Origin: a virus
Lineage: Duplodnaviria > Caudoviricetes
IMG/VR virus record: IMGVR_UViG_3300037067_018554
Coordinates: 4,060 to 68,059 of that record
DNA length: 64,000 nucleotides
Reading direction: 5' to 3' (one strand)
In this document: positions 24,191 through 42,561 of the stretch, one piece after another
Layout: every line of letters starts with the position of its first letter
Position numbering within the stretch: the stretch's first letter is position 1
Notes under the pieces: generated by a model
The model's database searches: none
What the model was told of the DNA's origin: nothing
What the model saw: only the letters and a program-made list of their open reading frames with translations
Made by a program: the position numbers and the translations under genes

Positions 24191-24889
24191 ATGGATTTAT
24201 TCTCGTCTTTACTAGAACCTAACCAATATTACGCTAACGATGGGTCTCAAGTAGGTTATGGGAACATTATACGTCGAGATCATACCTCGGAATATCTTCG
24301 GACTAATACCTCATTTTCCGGATGCGATATTACCGCAATAGTCAATCGTCCCGAAGCCAATCCCGTACGTCTTGGTAATCTTTCTACTATTACATACTCT
24401 ATCCATAGAGAGAAATACCCAGTCAGAGCTGTGGGACTAACTAACCCGAAGGGCTTTACTAGAGGCCCGAGGACCATTGCTGGCACGTGTATCTTCACGG
24501 TACTCAATAAGCATGCCCTATACGAATTAAGAGAAGACAAGGCTGGCACCGACAATGATAGCCAAAAAGGATTTGAGCCCTATAATCTATCTGATCAAAT
24601 AGTCCCAATAGATATTGTGATCGTTTTCACCAATGAAATGGGCGTACTATCCAAAATGACTATCTATGGTGTAGAATTTGTGGACGAGGGCATGGTAATG
24701 TCCATTAATGATATCTATACTGAAAGCACTCACAGTTATGTTGCGGCAGGGATTGATCTAATGCACCCGGGCGGGGAAACTATGACAAACGCCGTAGCTA
24801 ACCGCTGGACTGATGGAAGTTTTACCTTCAATACCTTCTACAATAGACTAGAGCCTAACTGGCGTCCAGCACCTAGGGTATTCTTCTAG
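24191..24889 (+). CDS. Tube-fold paralogue (tube initiator, T4 gp48/gp54-like role)
   Basis: TSFSGCDI and RGPRTIAGTCIF closely parallel the major tube protein. Confidence 0.75.
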   Translation: MDLFSSLLEPNQYYANDGSQVGYGNIIRRDHTSEYLRTNTSFSGCDITAIVNRPEANPVRLGNLSTITYSIHREKYPVRAVGLTNPKGFTRGPRTIAGTCIFTVLNKHALYELREDKAGTDNDSQKGFEPYNLSDQIVPIDIVIVFTNEMGVLSKMTIYGVEFVDEGMVMSINDIYTESTHSYVAAGIDLMHPGGETMTNAVANRWTDGSFTFNTFYNRLEPNWRPAPRVFF

Positions 24890-25517
24890 TGTGTTTTTTA
24901 CGATATGCTAAAATCTCAATTGATACCAACTGAGTATAATCAAAGCGGCTCTTGAATGTGAATGAGCTATCAAAAGGCGTCTTGTTGGTATCTGTGGGAC
25001 GCCAAGCAAAATAATATCCCCTATCATATAATCTAGGTGTTTGAGCTCTCCACCATGACGTTAGGTCAGCTATCTCTGATTGGTTATATCCTTTAATGAT
25101 AGTTCTAGGCCCATACCCCATAAGTAAATATCTAGCTCCAAAAACATGGCACATCATTAGAGAGATATATGACATCCTGGCCTGGATCTCCTGTTGCCGA
25201 CGTAGGGGTTCAGAACAATACTGAGGAGTTAAATAAAACCACTCTGTAAGTTCATTAGTACAACGCTTGGTTGGGTATCCATTTATCTCATATTTATCAT
25301 CGTGGGAAATAATGGTGCTAAATACTGCTCCTTGGTACTCGGACAATTTATTGGGCAAGGGATTCTCGGGTAGGGATATTTGATCAAGGTTTACGTAAAT
25401 ACCGTCCATTTTATACTGTGGTTTTTGGACTACATCACGCAAATCCACATGTAGATAAACCTGGGCCTGTACTGTAGTGGTAAGAAATGTTATAATAATA
25501 AGCAGGATATGTTTCAT
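24873..25517 (-). CDS. Secreted/envelope protein (moron) with Sec signal peptide; start revised to 25517
   Basis: MKHILLIIITFLTTTVQA|QVY; SD GAGG 5 nt upstream on the - strand; only credible - strand gene in the window. Confidence 0.75.
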   Translation of the reverse strand: MKHILLIIITFLTTTVQAQVYLHVDLRDVVQKPQYKMDGIYVNLDQISLPENPLPNKLSEYQGAVFSTIISHDDKYEINGYPTKRCTNELTEWFYLTPQYCSEPLRRQQEIQARMSYISLMMCHVFGARYLLMGYGPRTIIKGYNQSEIADLTSWWRAQTPRLYDRGYYFAWRPTDTNKTPFDSSFTFKSRFDYTQLVSIEILAYRKKHTRRIP

Positions 25518-25547
25518 AAGTGCCTCACAAGTTCCTTTACTAAATTC

Positions 25548-25576
25548 AATATATACCCTAGCCTGGAATAAGTCAA
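25548..25576 (-). promoter_or_regulatory. Sigma70-type promoter for the antisense moron
   Basis: On the - strand: TTGACT (25576-25571), 17-nt spacer, TATATT (25553-25548). Confidence 0.7.
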
Positions 25577-26395
25577 GTGTCCATTCCCTATAATCTAACA
25601 ACCAATAAAGGCACTAAATATAATGTGCCTCCTGTAACTGACAAGTCCTTAATGGACTCCAGGCTGGCAGCTACAGAAGCTTTTAGCCAATACTATTCTG
25701 GGAACCAAGTAGCCCTTTATATAGGTGATACGTGGCTCGACGACATATCTTTTGTCCAGTATCAACTGACACAAAATAAGCGTCCATTTTGGGGCTATAA
25801 ATCCCAGCAGTTTGATACGGTAGCTAAAGGTACCCAGCTAGTCTCAGGAATGTTCTCGGTTAACTTTAAACATACCAACTATCTTAATATTGTCGTAACA
25901 GCTTATCTTGACAAAACGAGAGCTGTATCGCCAACTAATATTGACGAAGGTAAGCTTCAGGAGTATATTAATATAATGCATGATGATCCGACCGCTCTGG
26001 CAGAACTTAGTATCCAGAACCCCGCGCTTCTGACAGATCGGCAGATAGCTGATATTGATAAGACTACAGACTCTACAAAGATGGAGTTACTAAAACAATA
26101 CTTCTGGGGAGAACATAAGGCACCAGAGATTATTGCCACAGATAATCTGCCACTTTTTGATATTGTTGTATATTTTGGAGCTTTTGATACCAGAAATAGG
26201 TATATGGCTCAAGAGACAGAGCGATCGCTACACACGATGCGCACCATCACAGGGGTTAGCATCACGGGGCACTCTATGCAATACGCACCCACTGGAGAAC
26301 CCGTACAGGAAGTATTTACATTTATTGCTCGAGCAGTAAATACTCCAGTTACAAGACGGGTGCTATCACAAGAACCTTTAACGCTTAAGCGTTAG
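25577..26395 (+). CDS. Third tube-fold paralogue (baseplate-proximal tube protein)
   Basis: YYSGNQV...VQYQLTQNKRPFWGY...VAKGTQLVSGMFSVNF parallels the tube motifs; ends with VQEVFTFIAR. Confidence 0.7.
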   Translation: MSIPYNLTTNKGTKYNVPPVTDKSLMDSRLAATEAFSQYYSGNQVALYIGDTWLDDISFVQYQLTQNKRPFWGYKSQQFDTVAKGTQLVSGMFSVNFKHTNYLNIVVTAYLDKTRAVSPTNIDEGKLQEYINIMHDDPTALAELSIQNPALLTDRQIADIDKTTDSTKMELLKQYFWGEHKAPEIIATDNLPLFDIVVYFGAFDTRNRYMAQETERSLHTMRTITGVSITGHSMQYAPTGEPVQEVFTFIARAVNTPVTRRVLSQEPLTLKR

Positions 26396-27368: not shown

Positions 27369-30300
27369 ATGCTTTCCTCAAAAGCCAGTTGGGCCATAGC
27401 TTCCCTAGCCGCAGGTGCTTTTCTAGGGTCTCGAACATCGCGTCGGCCTATTTCAAATGCCGATGTTGATGCTGGTGGTCATGCCACTAGTAAAGGGATA
27501 ATGGCTGGAGTAACAACTGCCGGTGTGATGTCAGCTCTATATAGTGCTACGCATATAGGCCCGCAGAATGCCTATGCTGCTCCACTTATGGGGGTAGCAG
27601 GACTATTGGGTGGCTATATTGTCTCTAGAAATCTATCTAATTATCGGGATGCCAGTACTCTTACCGGGAACACCAAACTTGCAGACATCCCCACATACCT
27701 AAAAGTAGCAGGAGGACTTGGGGCGCTATATTTTGGTGGTCGTGGAGCTATGCCATATACAGCTCGCATTATGGAGCGTTTTGGAAGGATGAGCCAACCC
27801 TTTGGCAAAGCTTTAGACAAAGCAGCCGAAGAGGCAGAGTGGGGTTCACCACTGGCATTAGCTAGTACGCTCACAGGTGGGCTCCGCGACGTAGAAAGCA
27901 AATTTGCTCTAAGCGCTAACAATCTTACTAGGTTCCCAATTAGTAATTCAATTGAAGCTCTTAGCCAGCTCAATTATCATGTAAATATTCCGGGAGATGC
28001 TAGGAAGCGAGTTGCTAACGATATCATAGGCTCTATACAAGCGCAGTATAGTAAGCCCAACATGGAAATAATTAATGGTCTGAGATCGGCTACTCTGCTA
28101 GATTTATCGCGCACTACTAGTCCTATCAGTGACAAACTATATGGGCTAGTCCAGGAAGGTGTCAAGTTAGGAAATATTGGTTTAGGAAAAGGAGTATTCT
28201 ATGACACTCGCTCTAAGAGAATACTTAACCTAAGTCAATATAGTCTAAGCAATATATTCTGGAAATCAGTGCTGAAATTTGAAAAATCCATTAAGCTGCC
28301 ATTCGTAGGTTTTAATCCTATTACCTTCTTTAGACCAACCGAATTCAGCGATATCCGGAAGCAATACAACAAGCTGCATTTCTTCAAACCTAATACACCA
28401 TATGGACCAGCTCCGGCAGATAAACTAGGCATTAAAGGTGGCATCTATTTCGGTGGCAAACTTTATGATGGAGCAACTGGAGACACATTAACTAAAGGCG
28501 GAATGGTAATAAAAACAGGGTCTTGGTTAACAGAAAAAGGACAGCAACCATTCTTTAAAGAAACCACATGGGGTTCTATCCTACGGATGAGATATTCTGC
28601 AGGCATGAACCGCGAAGCCCCCAAAGGCTATGTAAGTGTAGGTAATGCTTTTATTAAACAACCCAAGGGTAAGCTAGAAAAATTCAAGGATTGGTTCGAA
28701 TTAGGCTCTCGATATAACGAACATCCCTCGGTCTGGTCTTCTATATGGACCGCTATAAAAGAAAAAAGAGGACAGAAGGGTTTATGGAAGTCAGTCAAAG
28801 AGGCCTGGGAATCAGCTTTTGACGCTACTAATATACAACAAACCACTAAAAATAAATACCGTCTCAACCAATCCATGAGTGCCTTTGGGTCTAAAAACTT
28901 TAATCCCAAGAAGGGGCGTTCTAGTTTTGCGTTTATGCCGTTTTCTGACACTCCAGGCACTGGGGCATTTTGGATGGCTAACCGGTTCGTGGCTCTTAAT
29001 GAAGCCATCGGACTAGGGGGACTCAACCCACGCACTACTAAATCAGCCTCTGATGTTATATGGAAAATGATATTTAAAAGATACTTGCCAGCCTTCTTGG
29101 CTTTCGAACTATTGAAAGGGACTAATGATGTATCCAATATGCTTATCGGTACAGGACCAAAGGAAATCGCAGCTACTGCTATCGCGGGCGGACTTACTGG
29201 TGCCTCATGGATGCGAGACGCCTTAGGTATTACTGGTATGGCCCAATATTTCGAAGAACTCATGCCTGGCTCAATGACCTCTCCAGCCTCTACATTAGGC
29301 CGATCAATAGGAATGCCATTAGTAGCAGGCGTGAAACTAGGTCCACAGGGTCTGATGGCTGGAGCTGCCGTCTCCGCCTTCTTGGGTGGACCTACTGATA
29401 TTACTAAAACTTTTGAAGAAACTAAAGGAGAATATTTTGGGGACAAGAACGTCCCAATTAGATCTGGTAGATGGTGGGGATTTGGTGGATCTAGTTTCTG
29501 GGGTGGAAGAATTCAAACATTTGTACCCAATTGGTATCAAAGACTTATGTCTAGGTACCAATATGGAGACGTTATGTATGGATCAGAACTAGAATATTGG
29601 ACTAACTATGGAGATCCATACCACTGGGCACAGAAGCACTATCGAGATAGACCATATCCCATAGTAACTTCTCCAGTAGAAGAAGTCCCATTTATTGGTC
29701 CTTCGCTAGCAGGATGGTTCTCAAGACCTCTTGTTATGCATCCTGGAGAATGGGGTGGAGGATCTGGAGCCATGCTAGGCAACGGCCCGAGCAATGGTAT
29801 GGGCCAGGGCATTGGTGGTGGCCCAGGAGGATTAGGAAGTGCTGGTGGAAGCGGAGGAAGTTATGGAGGCGGATTGCCCCTAGGCGGCGGCGGGAATAGT
29901 ATCGAGGAAACTATTTATCCAGGACTAGGAGGCCAATATCCAGAACTAGGAACTCCAGGCAGTCTGCAAAATAGGATTGGTGAACAGTTCTATAGAGGAA
30001 CAGAATATGCTGGTATTTATGGTTTTGCTACCAATACTATATTAAAACAAGTCATTGGGGAAGAAACTCCATTTGTAGGTCCTCGGCTTGAATCTGCTCT
30101 GCGTATCTCTAGTGCAGAAAGAAGTTATTGGGATATTGCCCTGGGTGGTCTAGGAGGCCAAACAGAACTCTTCCGACGGTTCTTACCTCACCGACGTAGA
30201 GAAAATGAACTTATCAATGAGATACCTAATACCATGCCTCCCTGGTTGCCAGGAGCTAATTACTTTAAAAACTTTAGGCAGGGGGATCCATATAGTTCTA

Positions 30301-32234
30301 TCCCATTTGGAGAAATAAGATTACCAGGTAGCGGCTATGAACAATTTCACGGTAGTGAATATGGACCATTAGACAAGTATCGTATCCTGGCAGACGTAGC
30401 ACCCTACAGCTCAGAATTTAAATTTCAGGCCGAGCAGATTATGGCTATGTCAAAAGCCGGCATGCTAACTCCCGAAGAAGAGGAGATGCGCCAAGAAATA
30501 CGCAAACAGGTATCAGCCAAGAAGAAACGCTACGAGTTTGAGGAAAGAAACTTCGGCGCTGACAATACCACTACCGAAACAGTAACAGTTAATAAATACC
30601 TAGGCGAAGGTAGATTTACAGTAGCCAATGAGCCAGGATACTTTAAACTTGCTGGCCTTTCTGCAATAGATGATAAACAAGCAGGCCTAGAATCTATTTT
30701 ATACCAAGGTGCTAGGGTAGAAATCACTAGACTAGAAAATGATGAGACTAAATGGAATTCTGTAGTGCCTACGACGCCTGTTATTATCGAGGGTCTTAAT
30801 AGACAACTCCTGGAGAGTGGTGTAGCTAAGTATAAAAGAACTGGTCCCGGGGCAACCTTTGATGTACTTAATATGCAAGTTAAGTATAATCCTATTGAAC
30901 AAGCAGCTGGAAGTGCGTGGGAAACCTTTTCCCATATGGATACTCCATTTCATACCAAGTTTTTAAATGAAAGAACACCTCTGGAATCTTGGGAGCGCAC
31001 TCAAGTCTATGGTCGAGAATCTGTAAGTTGGAGTAATTTACCACGAGATCTAATTGATCCCTGGGTACAAAAAATGAAGTCTCGGGATATCTTTACAGCC
31101 ACAGCCACCGGGGCTATTGGTGCCGGCATGTTTGGTGGAACTTCCGGCATGCGGATGATGTTAGGTGCAGCAGGCGCTCTAGGCGGAGCGAACCTTTCTG
31201 TCATGGGTGCTGTTCAATCAGACAAAGGCGCCTATGTTCCCAAATACCGAAAGAAGGAATGGGACATAGAACAATATTTTGATGCCCTCGAATATTTAAA
31301 ATATCGAGGGATGTATGAATATGCCAGAGAGCGGGCCATCGAAGAGGAAGGAATAGACCCCGAAAAATTAGTGGGTGGGGTAGAATTTTCTCAAAAGACC
31401 AGAAGAGATATTGCTAGGAAACTTAAAAAAAGATATTCCAAGCTAACTCTACAGTCTTTGGGCAATCCCGATGACCTTAGCATCAAAGATTTAAGAACTG
31501 AAGTTAGAGATCAAATTCAGGCCCTGCAAGGACAAAAATACACTGAAGATGAAGTCATGCGGTTAGCCCAGGGAGGATTTACTGGAGCGGCTATGGCTCT
31601 GAGGCGCAAATGGCAATCCACCATGTATGGTGCGGATCCCAATGGAGACATGGGCAATATCATGCGCGCTCTCCCATCTAAGCAGAGAGACTATTTTACG
31701 GGACTAATGAATGCGCCAGCTAAAGATAGAGAGAAAATCTTATCAATAACGCCGCTTGGAATGCGCCGATTCTTGGAGGCCAAGTGGGGCATGGATGTAG
31801 AGGAAAACCCAGATCTTGAGGATTATTTCTCTGACAAGGCTCTGCCAAGACAAAACTGGGTAGGCTGGCACCCAGCTGTTAATCTTGATGATGTTAAACT
31901 AAAAACAGTCAAGCAAGAAGCGCTTGATATGCATGATTTTAATCTATGGGAATCCGATGAACGTAAGCTTAAATATAAGCCCTATGTTCCATATATTAAC
32001 CCATTTGATACAAGTGCAAACCGAGGTAGCCCGGCTACTGTTATCCGCAACCTGTTAGCTGGACAGGGATATTCAAGATATTCTGTAGAAGCAATGGATG
32101 CCGCCGTGTTATCCTATAAAGGAGATCCTGGATTAAGCATCTCCTTCGAAGTTAAACATGAAACAGAACCCGAGGCTACTGAATATGTTCGAGCCCATCT
32201 TCCAGAAATGATACGTAATGGCTACATCAGATAA
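27369..32234 (+). CDS. Tape measure protein (1621 aa) with hydrophobic helices, Gly-rich linker and degenerate SNase-like domain
   Basis: Long Ala/Gly-rich ORF after the chaperones; several TM-like segments; SNase-like pattern at aa 1070-1155. Confidence 0.75.
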   Translation: MLSSKASWAIASLAAGAFLGSRTSRRPISNADVDAGGHATSKGIMAGVTTAGVMSALYSATHIGPQNAYAAPLMGVAGLLGGYIVSRNLSNYRDASTLTGNTKLADIPTYLKVAGGLGALYFGGRGAMPYTARIMERFGRMSQPFGKALDKAAEEAEWGSPLALASTLTGGLRDVESKFALSANNLTRFPISNSIEALSQLNYHVNIPGDARKRVANDIIGSIQAQYSKPNMEIINGLRSATLLDLSRTTSPISDKLYGLVQEGVKLGNIGLGKGVFYDTRSKRILNLSQYSLSNIFWKSVLKFEKSIKLPFVGFNPITFFRPTEFSDIRKQYNKLHFFKPNTPYGPAPADKLGIKGGIYFGGKLYDGATGDTLTKGGMVIKTGSWLTEKGQQPFFKETTWGSILRMRYSAGMNREAPKGYVSVGNAFIKQPKGKLEKFKDWFELGSRYNEHPSVWSSIWTAIKEKRGQKGLWKSVKEAWESAFDATNIQQTTKNKYRLNQSMSAFGSKNFNPKKGRSSFAFMPFSDTPGTGAFWMANRFVALNEAIGLGGLNPRTTKSASDVIWKMIFKRYLPAFLAFELLKGTNDVSNMLIGTGPKEIAATAIAGGLTGASWMRDALGITGMAQYFEELMPGSMTSPASTLGRSIGMPLVAGVKLGPQGLMAGAAVSAFLGGPTDITKTFEETKGEYFGDKNVPIRSGRWWGFGGSSFWGGRIQTFVPNWYQRLMSRYQYGDVMYGSELEYWTNYGDPYHWAQKHYRDRPYPIVTSPVEEVPFIGPSLAGWFSRPLVMHPGEWGGGSGAMLGNGPSNGMGQGIGGGPGGLGSAGGSGGSYGGGLPLGGGGNSIEETIYPGLGGQYPELGTPGSLQNRIGEQFYRGTEYAGIYGFATNTILKQVIGEETPFVGPRLESALRISSAERSYWDIALGGLGGQTELFRRFLPHRRRENELINEIPNTMPPWLPGANYFKNFRQGDPYSSIPFGEIRLPGSGYEQFHGSEYGPLDKYRILADVAPYSSEFKFQAEQIMAMSKAGMLTPEEEEMRQEIRKQVSAKKKRYEFEERNFGADNTTTETVTVNKYLGEGRFTVANEPGYFKLAGLSAIDDKQAGLESILYQGARVEITRLENDETKWNSVVPTTPVIIEGLNRQLLESGVAKYKRTGPGATFDVLNMQVKYNPIEQAAGSAWETFSHMDTPFHTKFLNERTPLESWERTQVYGRESVSWSNLPRDLIDPWVQKMKSRDIFTATATGAIGAGMFGGTSGMRMMLGAAGALGGANLSVMGAVQSDKGAYVPKYRKKEWDIEQYFDALEYLKYRGMYEYARERAIEEEGIDPEKLVGGVEFSQKTRRDIARKLKKRYSKLTLQSLGNPDDLSIKDLRTEVRDQIQALQGQKYTEDEVMRLAQGGFTGAAMALRRKWQSTMYGADPNGDMGNIMRALPSKQRDYFTGLMNAPAKDREKILSITPLGMRRFLEAKWGMDVEENPDLEDYFSDKALPRQNWVGWHPAVNLDDVKLKTVKQEALDMHDFNLWESDERKLKYKPYVPYINPFDTSANRGSPATVIRNLLAGQGYSRYSVEAMDAAVLSYKGDPGLSISFEVKHETEPEATEYVRAHLPEMIRNGYIR

Positions 32235-35200
32235 CTTTATTCCCAAGGGACTATCCAGTAAGGCTACTAGCCTCCTAAAACTTGGAGGCTATCAGTATTC
32301 TGTTGCTTCCGGGGCTTGGATCCGTCCTGCTGATAACTTCCGAGGATATGAAGGCGAAAAGTTATTCCTGCCTAGCCACCAGCCTAATAGTATCTTCGAG
32401 ATGGGCCGCATCTCTAGATCTGGGCATGGACTATTATACAAAAACCGGGAGATGAATCTCACCCAATACGCATCTGCCAAAATGAGCGAAATTGCCAAGC
32501 TTAGTAGTCTATCTAAAACAGAAAAACTACAAAGGCTTGATACTTTTGCTAAGGAGTTTACTGCCGAGTTGCGCTCTATGCCACCTGCTAGTGTAACTGG
32601 ATTTGGTGGTAGTGAAGCTAATGCTAGTTCCTTTAAAGACCCAGTCTTGGCCAGATTATTGCGTGATCCCTCGGCCCCTGAAACCAAAGTATCTGCCCGC
32701 CTACATGAGCTAGCTAACAAAGGCTATTATTTCCTTCCCGGCAAGGTAGAAAAAGGTATTATTAGCCGGATGTCTCCATCTGCATTGATGCCGGGCATGG
32801 GAGGCATACATGCTCTCAACAAATACACTACTCTCACCAATGTGCTACCTGTATATGGCACTACCAGATCTGTAACTCCCTTTGCAGTTACTAGGGAAAC
32901 CATAACGGCAGCCAATCGTGCTTATCACCCAGCCTATAGAACACTTCATACGGGTCTTTCTCTCCGTGCATTATTTGTAGACCCGGCCTCTGCTCACACT
33001 GTTGGAACTGGAGCCATCTTCAGGGCTAGTGCTTTACGAGGTCACGGGGCTATTAGGCCCATGGAAATTACCTTTAGTAAAAAATTACTTGGAGATATTC
33101 TAGGAAAAGAAGAGGCTACAGATCTTCTTGGTAAACTGAAGCGTGCCCCTGCTGGCCTACAAGGAGTCACCGTAAGCCGAGGCATTCTTCGTACTCTACA
33201 AAAAGCTCGTTCAGATCAAGATGAACTTAGATCGCTGCTGGGTACAGTAGAACCCAATCAGGTAGATCGCTTAATGAGCGCTCATGGCATTAAATTGGGT
33301 CGCGGAGAACATAAACTCTTTGGTCTAAAAAAGATGAAAGGTGGCCAATATACATTCTTTGGTGGAGAGGTTCAACCCATTGCTCTAAGCACCAAGATGG
33401 TCATCGCAGGCCAAAAAACCTCTGTGGTGGGAGCCTGGCACGATACTCCATTTGATGAACTAGCAGCCAAGGCATACCCACATCTTAGTCCAGAACAAAT
33501 TGCTGGTGTTGATGTTATTATGTCACATGCTGGAACCTCAAAACTAGATCAAAGAGAAACAGCCAATCTTTTCTTTAGTAAAGCACAAGACTATATTGAG
33601 GGCGCACAACATCCACTGGAAAGAACTCGTCGCACTAGTGAAGTTCTTAATATCATTAACGCTGATATTAAAAGGGGTCCATTAGCTACAGTAGGAGCTA
33701 GTGGTGTTCTCGAACTTCCTGGCTCATGGAAAGCTATTCCCAGTAACATTAAGGCTATTGAAGCTAAACTCCAATCAGCTGGGATATTTGAAGATGCTCT
33801 TGAAGCTTTACGAGCACCTAATATTAGCAAGCTGCCTGATGCCATCCGTCGCGTACATGCCCAACCACTACTTTCTGGGCTAACATCGACATTCCGGTCT
33901 ACAGGTCGTACTCTAAAGGTGGGAATTGATGATGTGGCTGCTGCAATGGCAGCCAAACGTCCTCGCCTAGCCAGCGAATTTGCTAAATCTATAGCACAAC
34001 AACCTGCCGCTCAACAACTCATGGAGGGGACAAGAGTTCTATATGGGTCCTTGCCTAAGACCCTAAAAGTTCTCGATACTACCACTATTAAGGCCATGGC
34101 TAATATTACTAGAGTAAGGGGAGGCGGGCTGGGGAATATTACAACTGCCCTACCTCTTAATCCGGAAACAAGCGCTGGTTATGTTCTTAATCTGCCTAGG
34201 CCAGTTTCTGTTACTACGGGTCAAGGAAGAATAGTCAATATGACTAATGCAGTATTTGAGATGGGCGAAGCTACAGGTTTGGCATGGCAAGAACCCGGAA
34301 TGTCTATTAGAGCAACGCCCTATCACAAAAGCTGGATAAAATTAGCTAAAGCCATAGTAGGCAATGACTCCAGAGTCTCGCTCGAACAAGCAGCTCAAGA
34401 ATACTGGACTGCTAGAGAAAATCTGCTCGGAAAAGATAGGCTTTTTACTCGCAAAGCCTTTAAAGCGCAGATGACAGGTATACGTGGTGCGGCATCTTTT
34501 CTATCTCCAGAAGAAGAACAAATTCTCAATAGAGTATATAACAAGGGTAAACCCTCTGCAACAGGATGGTTGGCACTTACGCGGAACAAGGCAGAGTATC
34601 TTCTTGCCAATGATTTACAGGGACTTACAGACCCAACAGAACGTCTTGCTAAGCTTCGCTCTCTTATGAGTGAGGGCGTATATACCTATGCAGGTAGACC
34701 TCCTCAATATCCTAGTGGATATGCGCCCGTACGATTGGCACTCTTAGAAGAGTTAGGCCAATTCAATGATTATGCCACCAAAAATAACCGTAAAGCCTCC
34801 GAAAATATCATGCGTATGTCTGGGATAGTAGAGGGGTATAGTCCTATACCGGGCAAAAAAATAGCTGCAGATGCCGATATAGATATTGTAGTAGCCCATC
34901 GCTTAAGCGAGGCAACACGAGCTGAGGCTAAGCGCGAGCATTATCGTCTATACCGCACATCTCAATTTGGAGACATTGTTGGTACCTCTCTAACTGCCTC
35001 CGAAAGAGCAATGCAACTAGAAGCCGCTGGGTCTGCACTAAATGCCGAACTTATTGGTGAGGCCTCCATTGCTAAAGGTAAAGTAACGGGTCCTCTACAT
35101 AACTTAGCTTTACAAATGCAGGACTATGGTCGCAGATATGTAGAACAACGCAAACAGTGGAAAACAATGGGAATACTAAATCCCAAATCTACTAAACACT

Positions 35201-36135
35201 GGACCCCAGAGTATGTTGAAAGCCTGGCATATATGGCAGGCCGAGGCGCAGAAACTGGCTTTGACTACAAAAAGATTAAACAGGAAGAAGCACTAAAAAA
35301 AGCTGTTCGTATTAGACCAGCTACTTTGCTTAGAAAATCAAATCTTACCCCTCAAGAAACTACACAGCTCATAGACTTCTTTGGCCTTACTGGTACCAAG
35401 CATGCTTATCGAACAATACGCGATATGCGTATGTTAGCACATGATGTTGTTAACTCAGGTAGGGCTGGGCAAAACTATGTAGAAATGATGCAAAAGGCAA
35501 ACTCAGCCTTTGAAAAACCAGCTATGGAAACTGCTCAGAAGCTAGCGTTTATGCGGGGTGTACGAAGCAAAGGTGCTCCAGTAACGCCCATGCAACTCCT
35601 AGCTAAGCATGGTCTATTCCCTGAGGCTGGAGATGTCTTGGGACAAATGAATGCCGCCACTGCTAGTGGTGAAGGTGGTATAAAAGGCATCAAAGAAGTT
35701 AAGGGAATGATTGGGGAAGGCCTCAATAAATTTATTGGTGAATTAAAAGCTGGGCGGGGTTGGGGCACAGTAGCTCTTGGAGCCATTGGAGTGGCCGGCT
35801 TAGTGGCCTCTTTTAGAAAGCCCGGGGTAATGATTGCCCGGCCAGATCAAAACCCTGTAGACCAGCGAGCCTACTATAACGAAGGTGATAGAGCTGAAAT
35901 TATTCCACAACGTTATTCAACCAATGTACGCACAATGACAAACCAGCAACATAACGTTAGAATAAGAGTAAGGGATTCTCAAAAACGCGATCGTGGGCAC
36001 TATATCAATATGGCAGAAAGTTTTGCTTCTAATACTGGACTTCCTACCTCTAGCCGTGTTACCTTTTCCGATAATTCAGCAACAACAGACTATGGTCGTA
36101 TATTCCAAAATGAAGCCAGCATGCAACTTGCATAA
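32218..36135 (+). CDS. Single-chain two-barrel (beta/beta'-like) DNA-dependent RNA polymerase, probably virion-associated, with C-terminal hydrophobic helix
   Basis: In order: KMVIAGQK-DTPFDE-VDVIMS (beta DPBB-like), GKDRLF, AGRPP, ADADIDIVVAH, KGKVTGPL (bridge helix-like), AETGFDYKK (trigger-like). Confidence 0.8.
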   Translation: MATSDNFIPKGLSSKATSLLKLGGYQYSVASGAWIRPADNFRGYEGEKLFLPSHQPNSIFEMGRISRSGHGLLYKNREMNLTQYASAKMSEIAKLSSLSKTEKLQRLDTFAKEFTAELRSMPPASVTGFGGSEANASSFKDPVLARLLRDPSAPETKVSARLHELANKGYYFLPGKVEKGIISRMSPSALMPGMGGIHALNKYTTLTNVLPVYGTTRSVTPFAVTRETITAANRAYHPAYRTLHTGLSLRALFVDPASAHTVGTGAIFRASALRGHGAIRPMEITFSKKLLGDILGKEEATDLLGKLKRAPAGLQGVTVSRGILRTLQKARSDQDELRSLLGTVEPNQVDRLMSAHGIKLGRGEHKLFGLKKMKGGQYTFFGGEVQPIALSTKMVIAGQKTSVVGAWHDTPFDELAAKAYPHLSPEQIAGVDVIMSHAGTSKLDQRETANLFFSKAQDYIEGAQHPLERTRRTSEVLNIINADIKRGPLATVGASGVLELPGSWKAIPSNIKAIEAKLQSAGIFEDALEALRAPNISKLPDAIRRVHAQPLLSGLTSTFRSTGRTLKVGIDDVAAAMAAKRPRLASEFAKSIAQQPAAQQLMEGTRVLYGSLPKTLKVLDTTTIKAMANITRVRGGGLGNITTALPLNPETSAGYVLNLPRPVSVTTGQGRIVNMTNAVFEMGEATGLAWQEPGMSIRATPYHKSWIKLAKAIVGNDSRVSLEQAAQEYWTARENLLGKDRLFTRKAFKAQMTGIRGAASFLSPEEEQILNRVYNKGKPSATGWLALTRNKAEYLLANDLQGLTDPTERLAKLRSLMSEGVYTYAGRPPQYPSGYAPVRLALLEELGQFNDYATKNNRKASENIMRMSGIVEGYSPIPGKKIAADADIDIVVAHRLSEATRAEAKREHYRLYRTSQFGDIVGTSLTASERAMQLEAAGSALNAELIGEASIAKGKVTGPLHNLALQMQDYGRRYVEQRKQWKTMGILNPKSTKHWTPEYVESLAYMAGRGAETGFDYKKIKQEEALKKAVRIRPATLLRKSNLTPQETTQLIDFFGLTGTKHAYRTIRDMRMLAHDVVNSGRAGQNYVEMMQKANSAFEKPAMETAQKLAFMRGVRSKGAPVTPMQLLAKHGLFPEAGDVLGQMNAATASGEGGIKGIKEVKGMIGEGLNKFIGELKAGRGWGTVALGAIGVAGLVASFRKPGVMIARPDQNPVDQRAYYNEGDRAEIIPQRYSTNVRTMTNQQHNVRIRVRDSQKRDRGHYINMAESFASNTGLPTSSRVTFSDNSATTDYGRIFQNEASMQLA

Positions 36136-36147
36136 GGCAAAATAATC

Positions 36148-39100
36148 ATGTTCTCAACACAGAAACTCTATGACATCTCCGAATTCGATACTTATAAATC
36201 CATGGATGGAGCATTTCGTTTTGGAACTATCTGGCTTATGGTGCCTCCACTCAGCATCCATTTCAGCAATATTAAAGGCAATGAAGTATCATGGACAATG
36301 CGACAGCAAGGTCCTAGCTTCAATAAAACTGGTCGTGGAATGATATCTTTTGATGTCGATCTAGTATTCTCTGGGCGTCATGCTATTGAAAAACAACTTG
36401 CCCCAATACTAGCTATGATACGCCGGAACCCCATACAGATGGTGGCTAATAAAACCTTAGCAAAATTATTGAGTTATGATGACAATAAAAAATTGCCATG
36501 TATCCCCATAGCTGTTACACACTACGCTCTCAATACTATGCAAGATCTGCCAGACACACTCATCCTAAACTTGAGTTGCATGGTATTTAATATCAAACCA
36601 TATACTCGACGACCCATGTTTCTAAGAGCTGAATTTGTCAAGGAAGATCCAGAGTATCCTGGATATCCAATTCTCAACTTTATACCAACTTCCAATCCAG
36701 AAAACAGTAATCTTTATATAGACTTTTATAACAGCCTTATTAAACCCTGGAATAAAGTTAATGGTTTTATGTTTGCTGGCGAGGGACTGGACAGCCAAGA
36801 AACCCCTGGTTGGTTTAGCGGGAGGTTTGGGAATAGAGAAAAACAAATAGTTAAAAATGGAACCTGTATTCGGTTGCCTGACACACGTGGAGATTTTGTT
36901 GGAAGCAATATGACTATAGGATATCATACCTGGGGTATAGATATTGCCCTAGATACCAACCTTGGGGCCTATCTAAGTAATAGAAGTGGGAAATGGGTAG
37001 AGACTGAAGGGGAGGCTAAGCAAGATATTATCGAATGGCTAGGGATTAAAGATGATACAGAAAAACACAGGTCCTTAAAAAATTTAATAAAGGGATACTC
37101 GGATTTACTTACGGCTCTGCCCGCAAGCAATGTTGGTGGCAAATATGTGAAAAAATTTCACATTAATACTGATAGTATCAAACAAATAGTCAGTCAAAGT
37201 ATACAGCGTAGTCTACCTATTAGTGTGCTCCCTACACTTTCCTCTCATATACCTACTATACAATATCTAGGAGGGGCCGAGTCAAGTTTACAAGTAAGCA
37301 TCGTAACACAAAACGAAGAGTGGCTTCAGATACTAAAAGCAGTAGATGCTACAATTGAAGCTTCGGCACGAGATCTACATCGTAAATATGGGTGGGAAAG
37401 CACCTATATAGAGTCTGATATTCCTAACATCAATGGAACGTTCAATGTTGTATGGGGTGACATAGATGTACAAAGTGTTGAAGACAACCCTGGGACCTAT
37501 ATAGTCAATATAAAGTTTCAAGAACAAGGAGAGATAGTTAATGTTTTAAATACTCCTCCCACGCAAGACAAAAAACTGAAGCGTAAGCTATTGGACGCCA
37601 TTATTAATGAGTATGCGCAGACTGGAAAATTGTGGACTTATGATGCTTCCGTAGACAAGAGAACTAAAAAATATACATACGGACATGATTGGAATTCCAC
37701 TTCCTATATTCGGGCTATTATCATACCCGACATTATCCGCGTTATTCGTGATGAATATATTAAATATTTAAAAAACACATATTATGGTAAAGGTAGTTGC
37801 TTTCAAATATGGCCAGCAACCATAGGATTTTTCCAGAGCAATACAGACAGTGAATATATAACCAGAAATCTCATGATGCAAAATGCTGCTACTGCCACGC
37901 AAGTAGCTCTATTGGATCCTACAACTTTTGCGGCGCATCTTATTGAAAAAGGATTAAATAGTGCAGGTTTTATAGACTCAACAAAAGGTATTACAGAATA
38001 TGAGAGAGTAGAAAATGCTTATAATGCCATATGGCGTGCTATCGTTGGTGCCCCACCATTAGAGCAGGGTGCAATATTTGGAGGAGTATCTCCTGAAGTG
38101 TATAACTCTCTTGGCCTAAAAGCACAGATGATGATGCTAATATGTGAAAACGACGCTAATGAATTAGCGGCATGGCAAGGAGCTGTAGGCTATAGCGAAA
38201 AGGGATACTTTGCTGCTTTTCGTAGATGGCTAAGGGATAATCCTCCTGTCGATCTTCTTATGCGACACTTTGTTGGAAGACTAGATTATCTAATTCGCAG
38301 TCCTCACTTGCTACTATGGGAACTCGATCGCATGAAGCATATAGACGCTAGCGAGCGCGCAGACCTGAAGACGCAGTTGTGCCCTCAAAAAAATCCTACA
38401 AAACAAACATTTAGATTAGAGTATTATCTCTCAAACTATCCCGATATGGGCATGCCTTATCAATATTATCCTCGAGATATTCATGGGAACAAGTTATCCA
38501 AACTCCCTTATATTTTTATGTCGCCAACATTCTATATGCAAAAAAACTCTGTCCTAGCAGAACAGGGCCCTGCTGATGATGAACAACTAAAAAATACCTC
38601 TGAGATAAAAACTCAGATCAATTCTATATCTAAAAAAGTATTAGATGACCGCGTCTCACGCAAAAAAGCTCTTGGACACTATTTATATGGCGGGTTTAAT
38701 CCCAATAGTACATCTTCCAACGATGGCCTGCGGACCCTTACTCGGGTGCCATCCGAACTAATTGTTCAAGATGCCAAAGAAAAACAAAAGATGGACGAAT
38801 ACCAACAACGACTTAAGGATATCGAAGCGACTAGAACTAACTATAATGTAAAATACCAGTCTAGTACTATCCAAACCCTAGGTTCATCAGATATGGTGAA
38901 CTATAATGCATCTTTAAATGATAGCTCCTCTTATTCCAATGAAACGTCTCGACAGGCAATTACAGAACATATTCGCGAAGGGCGTCTCTGGCGAGCAACT
39001 TTTAAGGACCATAACCCCAATATAGAGCAAGACCTTCAAAATATAATTAAAAAAGGTTATGATGCTATATATAATGATGCTGAATACTATTCCCTAGATA

Positions 39101-42100
39101 AGGCATTCCCGACCTATAAGCTATATTTTAGGATAGAAAATAAACCTGAGTGGTTTTTGTTTGATCAGTTCTTTGATTTCAAGGGGGCAGATAGTATTAA
39201 GTATTATAAAGACAAAGCTGCACCAGGTTCAGTCTTATATATCACACTAAATAATCACAATAACTGCTTATCGGATATTGCTGCATTATCTGCGCATCGT
39301 TCTTTTGCTGCTGGAGATCTTAATACTTCCGATCAAATTAAAGTTTGGGCTACCGCTGCAGCTGATAATTCTCAGACCCGGGGTGGCAATACCCGCCCGG
39401 GAGACTTATTTGAAAAAAGTATATGGGGTAAGCCCGCCTCATCAAAACAAACCGATATAGAATATCTCAAGCAAACTGTGCCTACCTCTATACGCAAGTT
39501 ATTTGTGCGTGCAGGTACTCAACTGCAATTAAAACTTGGATATAAACCAGGCTCAGAAGATTTGTCAACAATTTTCAATGGGTATATCTCCGATGTTAGT
39601 TACGCTGATGATCAGATTATGATCGTAGCCCATAGTTATGGAGCCGAGCTTTTAACAGATGCCAACGTAGGATGGCTAGTAGGACGCGCCCTGCCTCCTA
39701 AGGCTCTAATCTGGAAATTGCTAGCCAACTCCAATATCAAGCACTTAGGTAGATTTCTTGGTGCTTCAATAACTCCCGATGGTAGTTTTCTGGGCAACTT
39801 CGAGGTCTCATCTTTTGATGACAACATCTATATCGATGAACTAACACAAGAGGGTTTTGCAGCTATACTTCAAGCCTATAATGCTGATAATATGACAGTC
39901 TGGGATGTGTTGCAGGATATTGCCGCAGCACATCCCGGGTACATATGTGCAACTGTACCATATGATAACCGAGAAACTATCTTCTTCGGGCGTCCAGATT
40001 CCCTATATCAATTCACACATGACCTTGGAGTGTCTCGCAAACTCACCAAAGAAGAACAAGGATATGGTTCTATTGGCGGAGCTCCCAAACTACAACTTCC
40101 AGAAGGAGAGATTAATCAGCTTCAATGGTTACGTATTAAACAACAATCCGAGGAAATGATTACTACGCAAATGATTAAGCGCTGTCAAGAATTGGTTAAT
40201 GCTAACACGAGCCGCCTCGAAACAGAGTTCTATATGTATGCTATGAAGTATTGCCAGTATGTAGAAATACTAATGAACCTAGCGTGTGATCCCTCTAGTG
40301 GGAACATGGAATATGCCCTAGGGGAAGTTGTGGGCGGGGAACCCAGTCCATCCAGTGAACAAAGTGTTGGTACAACTAACGTCGGGCACGTGCATAACCG
40401 CTTAGATGGGGGAATGCGCAAATTTGCTCCACTTGGCGAAGGCATTAAAGCCTATAATGACCTTTATGATATATACTTTAGGGTTACTGCTTTTATGTCT
40501 ACGAGTATGGATTATGGTGTAGCAGAACAAATGAAATATTACTGGAACCAATCAGAGAAAGCCAAAAAACGTATGGATGAAGCATTATCAAGAGTAGCTA
40601 CTGGAGGAGATGCAGATAAAAATATCCCAGATAAAGATACTGATGGCCCAGTTGGCGCATTGCTAAAAAGTGTAGATAACACTCTATATGCGCCTATATT
40701 GAAATTAGGAGAAGAAGCCTACGCAAGGTGGGGCATTGATTCGGTTTTTGTGGCTGTAGCATGGTCACAAGTTGCTATGGCACTCCAGAATATGAATGTT
40801 CTCCTAGGTAAAATTGTACCATCACAACCTAAAGACGAAAATGACAATGCATTAAACCCTATCTTGCTTGGAAAATATTATGAAAATGTTACCATACCTG
40901 GGCGAGGGGTGCTTACCAACTCTATATTTAAATTTACACAAGAAGACTGGAGTGCCATTAATAGCAATACTATAGACCTAGGAACATGGCTAAGAAAAAC
41001 ATGCTTGCAGGCACATGCCTATCTGCGTAGCATGTTGCTCAATAAACTAGGCTTTAATGGTTCTGAATATCAATTTCTATCTCTAGCGGGGCATGCGCCT
41101 AATAAAAAATACTTCCGCCAATATCACTTACTCAATGGATTTGAAAACATAATCAGCAACAACATTAAAACCTCCTTCCAAACTATGTGGAATAGGGTGC
41201 GCGTTAAGTATGAAAGGCATAACGCAACTCTTATGAATATCTACTTGCCTGCGTTTGTTAAACTAGATCTCCCATTTGTTCTACCATTTACGGCAGCTAA
41301 CTCAGACTTTACCATCAAGGCTGGCAATACACTAGGTAATGAAATATCAAGAGAGTTAACCACTAGTGTTGAAAATGCCAAGACAGTGGTTCAAGCCAGA
41401 CACTATGCTACTAGTTATCTAGGAGAAGGAATACGCAATATGTATGCTGGTAGTTTAACTATCTTGGGAAACCCAGATATTAAACCATATGACATCGCAT
41501 ATATTTACGACGACTACAACGGCATGGCTGGACCTGTTGAAGTCAAGAGTGTGACCCATCTTATGTCCGCAGAAACTGGGTTTATTACAGTTATAGAACC
41601 TCATGCCAAAGTAGACGTACTTGGCATAGGAGATAGTCCCACTGCTATTATTGGCACTCTATTTGATGTAGCCAGTCTCGTGCCTCTCTTCTCACTACTT
41701 AGGCCCGTTAAAGCAGTTAAGGGTCTGGGATGGCTTGTAAAAGGTGTATCTAAAATAAAAGCTAATCCATCACAATTCATGAAGAAAGACTTGCCAGATG
41801 CTTGGTCGAAATTAACTAAGACAACATCTGACTATTATGATAACTTTAAAGCCTGGGGCACCAAACAAGGCGAAGCTGTTAATGCAGCTATTGCCAAAGG
41901 CATACGCACAGATATCTTCGGTGATACTGAAAAAGCGAACAAGTTTGCTAAAAGCCTAGGTATAGACAATGCTGATCTATTAAAACGTCGCCTTGTATAC
42001 ATCAGTAATCGTAAACTTCGTAAGTCGGGGAATAGAATTGCACAAACCACTATTGATAAGAAGTTTGCAGAGATGAGTCCCACAGCCCTTCAAAATAATA

Positions 42101-42561
42101 TTGAGAAGCTAGCCAATAAGGTTAAGTATGATAAGTTAACACCTGAGCAACAAAAAGCTTTTGATGAAGCTCTAGCAAGTATAGATAATATAAAACTCTC
42201 AGAGGCGGGTGATATATTATCCAATATTGTTGATACGCATACCAAAAAGATTAAAGACAAGCTTAGTTGGGTCGGATTGGCAGGCAACTACAAGCTTCTA
42301 AAGTTGCTTATGATTGGATCAACACTAGGAACCTATGAATTCATGATAGGGCGCGATGATCCCAATTATGCTTGTCCTGTACTCATTACTCCACTATCTA
42401 AATATGGAGAGCCGTTCACCGCAGGGCTAGATGGTATTAATCGGGATGGTGACCTTTTCCATATTATCGAAAATGAGGTATTGCGCATGAAGTGCTCACT
42501 AGACACCATAGGGCAATTTGCCAATTTCATTGGCTCAGTAACTAGGGATGCAGTATCATGA
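36148..42561 (+). CDS. Very large baseplate hub / tail initiator protein (2137 aa)
   Basis: Hub-like (gp27/late-control-D) segments IFNGYISDV...IVAHSYGAEL and GSLTILGNPDIKPYD...VKSVTH; follows the tape-measure locus. Confidence 0.7.
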   Translation: MFSTQKLYDISEFDTYKSMDGAFRFGTIWLMVPPLSIHFSNIKGNEVSWTMRQQGPSFNKTGRGMISFDVDLVFSGRHAIEKQLAPILAMIRRNPIQMVANKTLAKLLSYDDNKKLPCIPIAVTHYALNTMQDLPDTLILNLSCMVFNIKPYTRRPMFLRAEFVKEDPEYPGYPILNFIPTSNPENSNLYIDFYNSLIKPWNKVNGFMFAGEGLDSQETPGWFSGRFGNREKQIVKNGTCIRLPDTRGDFVGSNMTIGYHTWGIDIALDTNLGAYLSNRSGKWVETEGEAKQDIIEWLGIKDDTEKHRSLKNLIKGYSDLLTALPASNVGGKYVKKFHINTDSIKQIVSQSIQRSLPISVLPTLSSHIPTIQYLGGAESSLQVSIVTQNEEWLQILKAVDATIEASARDLHRKYGWESTYIESDIPNINGTFNVVWGDIDVQSVEDNPGTYIVNIKFQEQGEIVNVLNTPPTQDKKLKRKLLDAIINEYAQTGKLWTYDASVDKRTKKYTYGHDWNSTSYIRAIIIPDIIRVIRDEYIKYLKNTYYGKGSCFQIWPATIGFFQSNTDSEYITRNLMMQNAATATQVALLDPTTFAAHLIEKGLNSAGFIDSTKGITEYERVENAYNAIWRAIVGAPPLEQGAIFGGVSPEVYNSLGLKAQMMMLICENDANELAAWQGAVGYSEKGYFAAFRRWLRDNPPVDLLMRHFVGRLDYLIRSPHLLLWELDRMKHIDASERADLKTQLCPQKNPTKQTFRLEYYLSNYPDMGMPYQYYPRDIHGNKLSKLPYIFMSPTFYMQKNSVLAEQGPADDEQLKNTSEIKTQINSISKKVLDDRVSRKKALGHYLYGGFNPNSTSSNDGLRTLTRVPSELIVQDAKEKQKMDEYQQRLKDIEATRTNYNVKYQSSTIQTLGSSDMVNYNASLNDSSSYSNETSRQAITEHIREGRLWRATFKDHNPNIEQDLQNIIKKGYDAIYNDAEYYSLDKAFPTYKLYFRIENKPEWFLFDQFFDFKGADSIKYYKDKAAPGSVLYITLNNHNNCLSDIAALSAHRSFAAGDLNTSDQIKVWATAAADNSQTRGGNTRPGDLFEKSIWGKPASSKQTDIEYLKQTVPTSIRKLFVRAGTQLQLKLGYKPGSEDLSTIFNGYISDVSYADDQIMIVAHSYGAELLTDANVGWLVGRALPPKALIWKLLANSNIKHLGRFLGASITPDGSFLGNFEVSSFDDNIYIDELTQEGFAAILQAYNADNMTVWDVLQDIAAAHPGYICATVPYDNRETIFFGRPDSLYQFTHDLGVSRKLTKEEQGYGSIGGAPKLQLPEGEINQLQWLRIKQQSEEMITTQMIKRCQELVNANTSRLETEFYMYAMKYCQYVEILMNLACDPSSGNMEYALGEVVGGEPSPSSEQSVGTTNVGHVHNRLDGGMRKFAPLGEGIKAYNDLYDIYFRVTAFMSTSMDYGVAEQMKYYWNQSEKAKKRMDEALSRVATGGDADKNIPDKDTDGPVGALLKSVDNTLYAPILKLGEEAYARWGIDSVFVAVAWSQVAMALQNMNVLLGKIVPSQPKDENDNALNPILLGKYYENVTIPGRGVLTNSIFKFTQEDWSAINSNTIDLGTWLRKTCLQAHAYLRSMLLNKLGFNGSEYQFLSLAGHAPNKKYFRQYHLLNGFENIISNNIKTSFQTMWNRVRVKYERHNATLMNIYLPAFVKLDLPFVLPFTAANSDFTIKAGNTLGNEISRELTTSVENAKTVVQARHYATSYLGEGIRNMYAGSLTILGNPDIKPYDIAYIYDDYNGMAGPVEVKSVTHLMSAETGFITVIEPHAKVDVLGIGDSPTAIIGTLFDVASLVPLFSLLRPVKAVKGLGWLVKGVSKIKANPSQFMKKDLPDAWSKLTKTTSDYYDNFKAWGTKQGEAVNAAIAKGIRTDIFGDTEKANKFAKSLGIDNADLLKRRLVYISNRKLRKSGNRIAQTTIDKKFAEMSPTALQNNIEKLANKVKYDKLTPEQQKAFDEALASIDNIKLSEAGDILSNIVDTHTKKIKDKLSWVGLAGNYKLLKLLMIGSTLGTYEFMIGRDDPNYACPVLITPLSKYGEPFTAGLDGINRDGDLFHIIENEVLRMKCSLDTIGQFANFIGSVTRDAVS

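Follow-up and report, generated by a model that had tools for sequence, protein, structure and literature searches.

A protein resembling single-chain, two-barrel RNA polymerases among the tail genes of a contractile-tailed jumbo phage

A giant gene flanked by tail and baseplate genes

The window analyzed here is a 64,000-nucleotide stretch of a 68-kb virus contig from IMG/VR (IMGVR_UViG_3300037067_018554). The contig is estimated to be 28% complete, which implies a phage genome of ~200–240 kb. The gene of interest, at 32218–36135 (+), starts with an ATG and encodes a protein of 1305 residues. An earlier note on this DNA, made from its letters, had assigned this protein, as a single polypeptide, to the superfamily of two-barrel RNA polymerases (RNAPs). 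Our analysis supports this assignment. The open reading frame (ORF) is genuine, and the invariant residues of the family, together with the predicted fold of residues 600–1080, make it very probable that the protein has the fold of a two-barrel RNAP and an intact set of catalytic residues.

The window is a morphogenesis module, in which terminase, portal, protease and major capsid protein genes are found together with a tail sheath gene (PHROG E = 1e-66; Phage_sheath_1C). Two tube paralogues precede three giant ORFs in a row (1621, 1305 and 2137 residues), and a sheath initiator, a Baseplate_J protein and more virion proteins lie past them. Because the sheath, the sheath initiator and Baseplate_J are all matched, the tail is contractile, as had been proposed. 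All related contigs share one gene order: sheath, two tube paralogues, a gene for ~1650 residues, the RNAP-like gene, a hub of ~2000–2300 residues and baseplate genes. The ATG of the RNAP-like gene overlaps the stop of the upstream ORF by 17 nt, and the same junction overlaps in the contigs of the relatives; 13 nt separate its own stop from the start of the next ORF.

The upstream gene (27369–32234, +) encodes the 1621-residue protein, a homologue of gp145 of Bacillus phage 0305phi8-36 (blastp E = 2.6e-83) and of ME3_35 of Acinetobacter phage vB_AbaM_ME3 (E = 4e-26), with the homology spanning ~650 residues. In the 0305phi8-36 record, gp145 is a virion protein by mass spectrometry. No tape-measure family in Pfam, PHROGs or NCBIfam matches either the 1305-residue protein or this neighbour. 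By position the gp145-like protein could be the tape measure, and it may be a better candidate than the RNAP-like protein, since it directly follows a set of chaperone-like small ORFs. The downstream gene (36148–42561, +) encodes the 2137-residue baseplate hub, which carries a lysin-like domain and is homologous to 0305phi8-36 gp147 and ME3_37.

Catalytic residues and predicted fold

The RNAP-like family is rare. When 1.84 billion cluster representatives were scanned exhaustively with HMMER, nine other full-length relatives and several C-terminal fragments came up, and other searches added five full-length relatives, for a total of 14. All are from metagenomic phage contigs; one is 37% identical to the query and the rest ~20%. 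A profile search of a 5.8-billion-protein index brought back the query alone, and scans of IMG/VR and the JGI metagenomes gave six contigs and no more. The 1305-residue protein matches no family of any kind in Pfam, PHROGs or NCBIfam. It has no tblastn match at thresholds as loose as E = 10 in a set of 50,697 phage records, none among PDB sequences searched with the single sequence or with a profile, and none among ESM Atlas features. The query and its 14 full-length relatives make up the 15-sequence alignment to which the conservation counts below refer.

Only 29 of the 1305 positions are invariant in this alignment. Outside the C-terminal module they are T205, T225, G263, K393, K400, R446, G563, G738, G820, R827, P829, G834, D885, D887, D889, G958, K1018 and N1145. 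All seven RNAP motifs listed in the earlier note lie at the residues given there: K393-MVIAGQ-K400 with D409TPFDE and V431DVIMS; G738KDRLF; W784LALTRNKAEYL; AG-R827-PP; D885-A-D887-I-D889 (34870–34884); K953GKVTGPL; and AETGFDYKK (residues 1011–1019), with a hydrophobic helix (residues 1182–1199) behind them. Their Escherichia coli parallels are also right when checked on MG1655 rpoB and rpoC (K1065, K1073 and R1106 in β; K334, R425, P427, D460/462/464 and K789 in β'). Six of the seven residues that had been numbered in advance are invariant and the seventh, K953, is kept in 14 of 15 sequences (hypergeometric P = 4.8e-10), so the match of the motifs is far beyond chance. The weakest is the third, WLALTRNKAEYL, where the adjacent G783 alone is conserved.

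The catalytic signature itself is strictly kept. Each of the 15 proteins has one DxDxD, always at the aligned site, with an R-x-P 46–70 residues upstream of it. Each also matches once the published pattern [RK]xP-x(20-100)-DxDxD, a filter by which Sokolova and co-workers validated their two-barrel RNAP hits. Eight residues are described as universal in two-barrel RNAPs: in barrel A the Asp triad and the R-x-P, and in barrel B a pair of basic residues and one Asp (PMC2919709). Seven of these eight are invariant here and occur in the correct order. Because they are absolutely conserved at ~20% sequence identity, it can be argued that the chemistry of nucleotidyl transfer has been retained.

The β'-like half of the protein begins with a clamp-core-like connector (34015–34476, +; residues 600–753), which ends in a switch-2-like G738-K739. 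Of these two residues the Gly never varies, while the Lys is found in 14 of 15 sequences; the site parallels K332 of Rpb1 and GK334QGRF of E. coli β'. In the model, residues 648–745 align to β' 94–340, and crop residues 11–140 align to an archaeal clamp. The connector leads into barrel A, the β'-like catalytic barrel (34477–34908, +; residues 754–897), which is predicted to be a double-psi β-barrel (DPBB) carrying the invariant DxDxD and superposes on isolated DPBBs with a root-mean-square deviation (rmsd) of 2.3 Å. R827-P-P829-x-x-P-x-G834 (34696–34719, +) corresponds to N-R425-A-P427 of β' (R446/P448 of Rpb1), and its R827, P829 and G834 are present in 15 of 15 sequences. The Mg-binding triad D885-x-D887-x-D889 (34870–34884, +), predicted to be kept in homologues, is invariant in 16 of 16 sequences and is the sole DxDxD in each member.

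Barrel A is followed by a bridge-helix-like long helix (35044–35166, +; residues 943–983), which is helical in both models described below and carries K953-x-x-x-T957-G958. G958 is invariant, K953 and T957 are each kept in 14 of 15 sequences, and the motif parallels K789-TAN-S-G of β'; the bridge helix of Rpb1 reads K-TAE-T-G. Alignments to β' run through this helix up to about residue 1312 of E. coli β'. Next comes a helix-loop-helix (35206–35307, +; residues 997–1030) with E1012-x-G1014...K1018, which appears to be trigger-loop-like.

The fold of the β'-like half was assigned from a model of residues 600–1080, the second of two, built on a 16-row alignment (predicted local distance difference test score, pLDDT, 70.7). 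A Foldseek search of the PDB with this model gave 65 matches at E ≤ 1e-3 (best E = 2.5e-4), and the top 50 are all largest subunits of RNAPs: bacterial, plastid, RNA polymerase (Pol) I and the non-virion RNAP (nvRNAP) of phage AR9, with a probability of 1.00 for most. VIA-align, run independently of Foldseek against 48,161 representative chains, scored highest with Mycobacterium tuberculosis β' (11.6; 344 residues aligned), tobacco plastid β' (11.2) and AR9 nvRNAP (11.0), followed by human Pol I (9.7), Sulfolobus RNAP (9.6), Pol II (9.5), phiKZ nvRNAP (9.3), vaccinia RNAP (9.3), African swine fever virus RNAP (8.7), Pol IV (8.5), Pol V (8.3) and Pol III (8.1). In BFVD the model matches β' of Ralstonia phage RP31, LEF-9, subunits of giant-virus enzymes and giant uncharacterized phage proteins. 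The best stretch of an hhalign comparison with RpoC (β' 238–266) is colinear with the structural alignment. For this model it is the specificity and colinearity of the structure matches that carry the weight, and barrel A, the clamp-like connector, the bridge-like helix and the helices after it are predicted to be laid out as in β'.

The β-like half contains the region of the second barrel, DPBB-B (32995–33567, +; residues ~260–450), with invariant G263, K393, K400 and R446. The basic pair K393...K400 (33394–33417, +), invariant in 15 of 15 sequences, parallels K1065/K1073 of E. coli β and K979/K987 of Rpb2. R446 (33553–33555, +), also invariant, is the probable equivalent of R1106 of β, a residue that comes after the VDIVLNPL strand. 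When the profile hidden Markov model (HMM) of the family is run on E. coli RpoB, its single best domain is at residues 1048–1101, where it pairs GxK..KG..DvIl with GDK1065..NK1073G..VDIVLNPL, exactly at the predicted position and with a score that is not significant. The first model, of residues 1–1175, was built on a 10-row alignment; it is β-rich at residues 264–435, with a strand pattern compatible with a DPBB. Taken whole, this model has no Foldseek match at E ≤ 1e-3, and its VIA-align results are swamped by a helical hairpin at residues 942–1024. Of the two DPBBs that had been predicted, barrel A is matched directly, and barrel B is likely from the conserved residues, with Foldseek matches that stay below threshold. 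Further upstream, R201-K202-Y-T-T205-L206 followed by GPGxG may, by visual likeness, correspond to K-R-R-I-S-A-L-G-P-G-G of β (fork loop 2).

The best-conserved part of the family is its C-terminal module, which consists of a Gly/Ala-rich hydrophobic helix (35761–35814, +; residues 1182–1199) flanked by R1180 and R1200-K1201, and a tail (35815–36132, +; residues 1200–1305). G1181, W1182, G1188, G1194, R1200 and P1202 are invariant around the helix, and R1232, D1285 and Y1292 in the tail. A C-terminal module common to the two giant neighbours of the RNAP-like gene was considered and rejected, as residues 1200–1305 resemble neither. The helix and the C-terminal segment behind it may serve to hold the enzyme in the phage tail or baseplate or, once it has been ejected, in the membrane.

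Counterparts in cultured phages and other genes of the window

The slot between the gp145-like gene and the baseplate hub holds different giant proteins in different phages, some of them without DxDxD, so its content is variable. In Acinetobacter phage ME3 it is occupied by ME3_36, a 'hypothetical protein' of 1603 residues (L021:9471–14282) with REPAQG...GGDHDQD at residue 1217, a G-N-K...N-K-G motif and a C-terminal hydrophobic helix. Bacillus phage KLEB27-3 has gp034, a 'structural protein' of 2434 residues (L023:4020–11324) with NRYPT...ADYDGD, and Bacillus phage vB_BceM_WH1 has gp095, a 'virion structural protein' of 2515 residues (L024:3806–11353) with NRYPT...ADHDGD. With the family HMM, the R-P-P...DxDxD block falls on residues 1871–1973 of KLEB27-3 gp034. 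One of the best BFVD matches of the model (E = 1.3e-5 over 563 columns) is A0A172Q021, an uncharacterized ME3 protein represented by its 802-residue part 2, which we take to be ME3_36 from the length of this piece, without an accession match.

These three proteins share the slot and the R-x-P...DxDxD signature with the 1305-residue protein but are much longer and have no BLAST-level similarity to it; in the Bacillus phages the signature lies near residue 1900–2000 of a far larger protein. By their sequence motifs, ME3_36, KLEB27-3 gp034 and WH1 gp095 are candidates for unrecognized virion RNAPs, and their present labels agree with the expectation that standard annotation would call such a protein hypothetical or structural. 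Two other occupants of the slot were tried as members of the family and rejected. In 0305phi8-36, gp146, a 'hypothetical tape measure protein' of 2537 residues (L019:2623–10236), has no RNAP signature and no DxDxD; its HMM match is insignificant and lies away from the catalytic site, and BLAST finds no similarity between it and KLEB27-3 gp034 or WH1 gp095. In Moorella phage MTATph1, CDS0027 (1309 residues; L022:4890–8819) likewise has no RNAP signature, no DxDxD and only insignificant HMM matches. A transposase is inserted between CDS0027 and the hub in this phage.

Several other genes of the window are of note. At 1437–2897 (+) lies a GTPase of the tubulin/FtsZ family (Pfam Tubulin, E = 1e-18), whose C-terminal domain is TubZ-like (TubZ-like_C, E = 2e-7) and which weakly matches the PhuZ PHROG. 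This gene identifies the source as a tubulin-encoding jumbo phage; neither chimallin nor subunits of a phiKZ-type RNAP were seen in the available 68 kb. The ORF at 3941–7120 (+; 1059 residues) has no match in Pfam and faintly matches one PHROG, a DNA-polymerase exonuclease (E = 4e-4). The two tube paralogues (23466–24113 and 24191–24889, both +) match phrog_9206, 'major head protein' (E = 7e-51 and 6e-40). This label appears to be misleading: the two proteins look like tail-tube proteins, because they are placed after the sheath and because a 'major structural protein' gene pair stands behind the ME3 sheath. Just after them, and overlapping the 3' end of the second, is the sole sizeable minus-strand ORF of the tail operon (24873–25601, −; 242 residues), which matches no family; a similar minus-strand ORF occupies the same place in a related contig (L002, 2663–3325). 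Downstream of Baseplate_J, a 1304-residue virion protein (45086–49000, +) with a Kelch-repeat β-propeller and Big_1-like domains is probably a tail-fibre or receptor-binding component, and a Kelch protein is found in the same place in related contigs L003 and L004.

Interpretation and comparison with known RNA polymerases

The protein is likely to be a catalytically competent single-chain two-barrel RNAP that is delivered with the virion and serves early transcription. Its N-terminal β-like part would contribute a barrel that supplies K393, K400 and R446. The clamp-like connector, with the switch-2-like GK at its end, would then lead into the β'-like barrel with R827-x-P829 and D885/D887/D889, and the bridge-helix-like and trigger-loop-like elements would follow barrel A, ahead of the hydrophobic helix and the C-terminal tail. 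The gene would be expressed from the late tail and baseplate operon, between the gp145-like virion protein and the hub, and its product would be built into the particle, either in the tail lumen or baseplate or as an ejected protein. On infection the enzyme would enter the cell with the DNA and transcribe the first phage genes without the host RNAP. Packaged or injected RNAPs have precedents in N4, phiKZ, AR9, the crAss-like phages and P23-45. Co-transcription and translational coupling with late tail genes suggest that the enzyme is made too late for use in the same infection cycle; as packaging and injection are the known solutions to this timing, a virion-delivered enzyme is favoured.

Several findings weigh against this reading. 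No RNAP family in Pfam, PHROGs, NCBIfam or PDB sequences is matched significantly by sequence, and hhalign comparisons with phi14:2 gp66, E. coli RpoC and E. coli RpoB are not significant, so that only the location of the best stretch is informative. The eighth universal invariant, the barrel-B acidic residue (D837 of Rpb2, D709 of QDE-1), was not identified; upstream of K393 the alignment is gappy and contains no invariant Asp or Glu, and a shifted equivalent is possible there. The whole-protein model is poor (pLDDT 53), and the Foldseek matches of the β-like barrel to β/Rpb2-type chains are sub-threshold (E = 0.09–0.4). TM-scores of the 600–1080 model to the much larger β' chains are ~0.2, with an rmsd of 6–10 Å, and the alignment behind the model has just 16 rows; the low scores and high rmsd are attributable to the difference in size and the quality of the model. 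At least two relatives (0305phi8-36 and MTATph1) fill the slot with a giant protein without DxDxD, and the contigs of the family are all fragments, 15–49% complete. Finally, packaging is proposed from gene context, and DNA-dependent RNA synthesis by the 1305-residue protein is a prediction.

The RNAP-derived fold could instead belong to a primarily structural protein of the tail lumen, a tape measure or an ejection protein, in which the conserved residues serve to grip or pilot the DNA end, in priming or in RNA-templated synthesis, and not in transcription from promoters. Many tape measures carry a C-terminal hydrophobic segment, as this protein does. Furthermore, the slot is annotated as tape measure in 0305phi8-36, and in P23-45 the tape measure physically includes the RNAP (PMC10770324). 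That tape-measure families give no match to the protein speaks against such a role. The missing barrel-B acidic residue and the presence of RNA-dependent and DNA-polymerizing enzymes in the two-barrel superfamily leave some room for a different activity, but the clamp, the switch-2-like GK and the KxxxTG of the bridge helix resemble those of DNA-dependent enzymes, and seven of eight universal catalytic residues held absolutely at ~20% identity speak for retained nucleotidyl transfer. We regard this alternative as unlikely.

Somewhat less probable still is an active two-barrel RNAP that is not packaged and is made in the infected cell for middle or late genes, in the manner of YonO or P23-45 gp64, with its operon position being incidental. 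The fold and the catalytic residues fit such an enzyme equally well, and in 0305phi8-36 and c-st the genes for YonO-type enzymes do not belong to the tail module (PMC7824862). An incidental position is, however, difficult to reconcile with its strict conservation in every contig, between the gp145-like gene and the hub and with a translational overlap, or with the structural and virion annotation of the KLEB27-3 and WH1 counterparts. It is also not obvious what a soluble enzyme would do with the conserved hydrophobic helix and tail at the C terminus, and co-expression with late structural genes would again come too late for the same cycle. The last alternative, a giant structural protein that is not related to RNAPs and has its DxDxD by coincidence, with AlphaFold and the structure searches misled, would explain the absence of a significant RNAP sequence match, the shallow alignment and the low TM-scores but is scarcely credible, given the invariance of six of seven residues named beforehand (chance ~5e-10), two independent structure searches that both lead to largest RNAP subunits from all domains of life, colinear over 300–400 residues, the 2.3-Å match to isolated DPBB domains, and the canonical NRYPT...ADYDGD that independent phages carry in the same slot.

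If the protein is indeed a virion-delivered RNAP, a broader and much more tentative proposal can be made. Contractile-tailed jumbo phages of the 0305phi8-36/ME3 supergroup might possess a widespread and so far unrecognized class of tail-borne two-barrel RNAPs, which would have originated from a fused and extremely reduced β-β' enzyme, occupy the tape-measure slot in or at the tail lumen and baseplate, leave through the tube on contraction, be anchored in the inner membrane by the C-terminal helix and transcribe the DNA during its entry. If true, the 'transcription at the entry pore' of P23-45 would be a general strategy and no siphovirus oddity. More generally, RNAPs carried by phages decide whether infection is independent of host transcription and of transcription-based host defences. 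To the known virion RNAPs (the T7-like enzyme of N4, the multisubunit enzymes that phiKZ and AR9 have in split form, gp66 of crAss phages, and gp96, which in a siphovirus is fused to the tape measure) the protein described here would add a compact enzyme that is made as one chain and encoded among the tail genes of giant phages with contractile tails. Giant 'hypothetical' and 'structural' proteins of ME3, WH1 and KLEB27-3, all of which standard annotation pipelines overlook, are re-labelled as candidate RNAPs, so that the idea is open to direct laboratory tests.

In its overall plan the protein is most like the β' subunit of multisubunit enzymes (RpoC, archaeal and eukaryotic Rpb1, AR9 and phiKZ), in which R-x-P, DxDxD and KxxxTG follow in the same order. 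It also resembles β-β' fusions, such as the Rpb2::Rpb1-like Orf6 of yeast killer plasmids, in that the β-like part comes before the β'-like part (PMC2919709). Unlike E. coli RNAP, it is one chain with ~1170 catalytic residues instead of ~2750, and nearly all lineage-specific domains of multisubunit RNAPs are absent, whereas a C-terminal hydrophobic helix and tail are present. Sequence similarity to multisubunit enzymes is not detectable, and the two lysines of the basic pair are spaced by 7 and not 8. No counterparts of α, ω or σ were seen in the available DNA. The phiKZ/AR9-type RNAPs of jumbo phages, in which β and β' are split over four or five polypeptides, differ in this from the single chain described here.

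Among phage enzymes, a parallel in genomic position is gp96 of Thermus phage P23-45, a two-barrel RNAP that is likewise encoded with the tail genes, where the tape measure is expected, and for which a role at the pore of DNA entry has been proposed (PMC10770324). However, gp96 is a siphovirus protein of 5002 residues fused to the tape measure, whereas the protein described here belongs to a contractile tail, has 1305 residues and is encoded by a separate gene. Furthermore, gp96 lacks the clamp connector and the C-terminal region, both of which the 1305-residue protein appears to have. With gp66 of phi14:2, a crAss-like phage, and with QDE-1/RDR it shares the order of barrel B, connector and barrel A in a single chain, and with gp66 also a place in a block of three giant genes (gp67-gp66-gp65, which are virion genes there). 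The spacing between the Arg and DxDxD is 46 in most members of the family and 45 in QDE-1. On the other hand, gp66 is a 2180-residue protein of a podovirus-like phage and shows no profile similarity to the 1305-residue protein. The earlier note had cited gp66 as a known case, but in the model the protein looks structurally nearer to β' of the multisubunit type, including AR9 and phiKZ, than to gp66, QDE-1 and RDR. As it looks closer to cellular β' than to the gp66/QDE-1 type, it bears on what a minimal RNAP of the cellular type may look like, and also on how often fused forms of RNAP arose.

YonO of SPbeta and the YonO-like enzymes of 0305phi8-36 and c-st are likewise single-chain two-barrel proteins of tailed phages, and YonO-type carriers are tubulin-encoding or related jumbo phages (PMC7824862). 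YonO is a non-virion enzyme, and the YonO-like copy of 0305phi8-36, ABS83659, lies outside the tail module (PMC7824862), at about ORF101 and ~44 genes upstream of gp145 when extrapolated from accession numbering. A 2021 comparative survey of jumbo phages lists phiKZ-type and two YonO-type enzymes only (PMC7824862), and a 2026 review of jumbo phages lists multisubunit enzymes only. In a literature search, the family, ME3_36, KLEB27-3 gp034 and WH1 gp095 were nowhere described as RNA polymerases. The DxDxD variants of the family are absent from one supplementary table of the 23-family RNAP catalogue of Drobysheva, Sokolova and co-workers, other parts of which may have catalogued them earlier. 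What is described here is very probably a single-chain two-barrel RNAP, probably virion-borne, in the tail module of a contractile-tailed jumbo phage.

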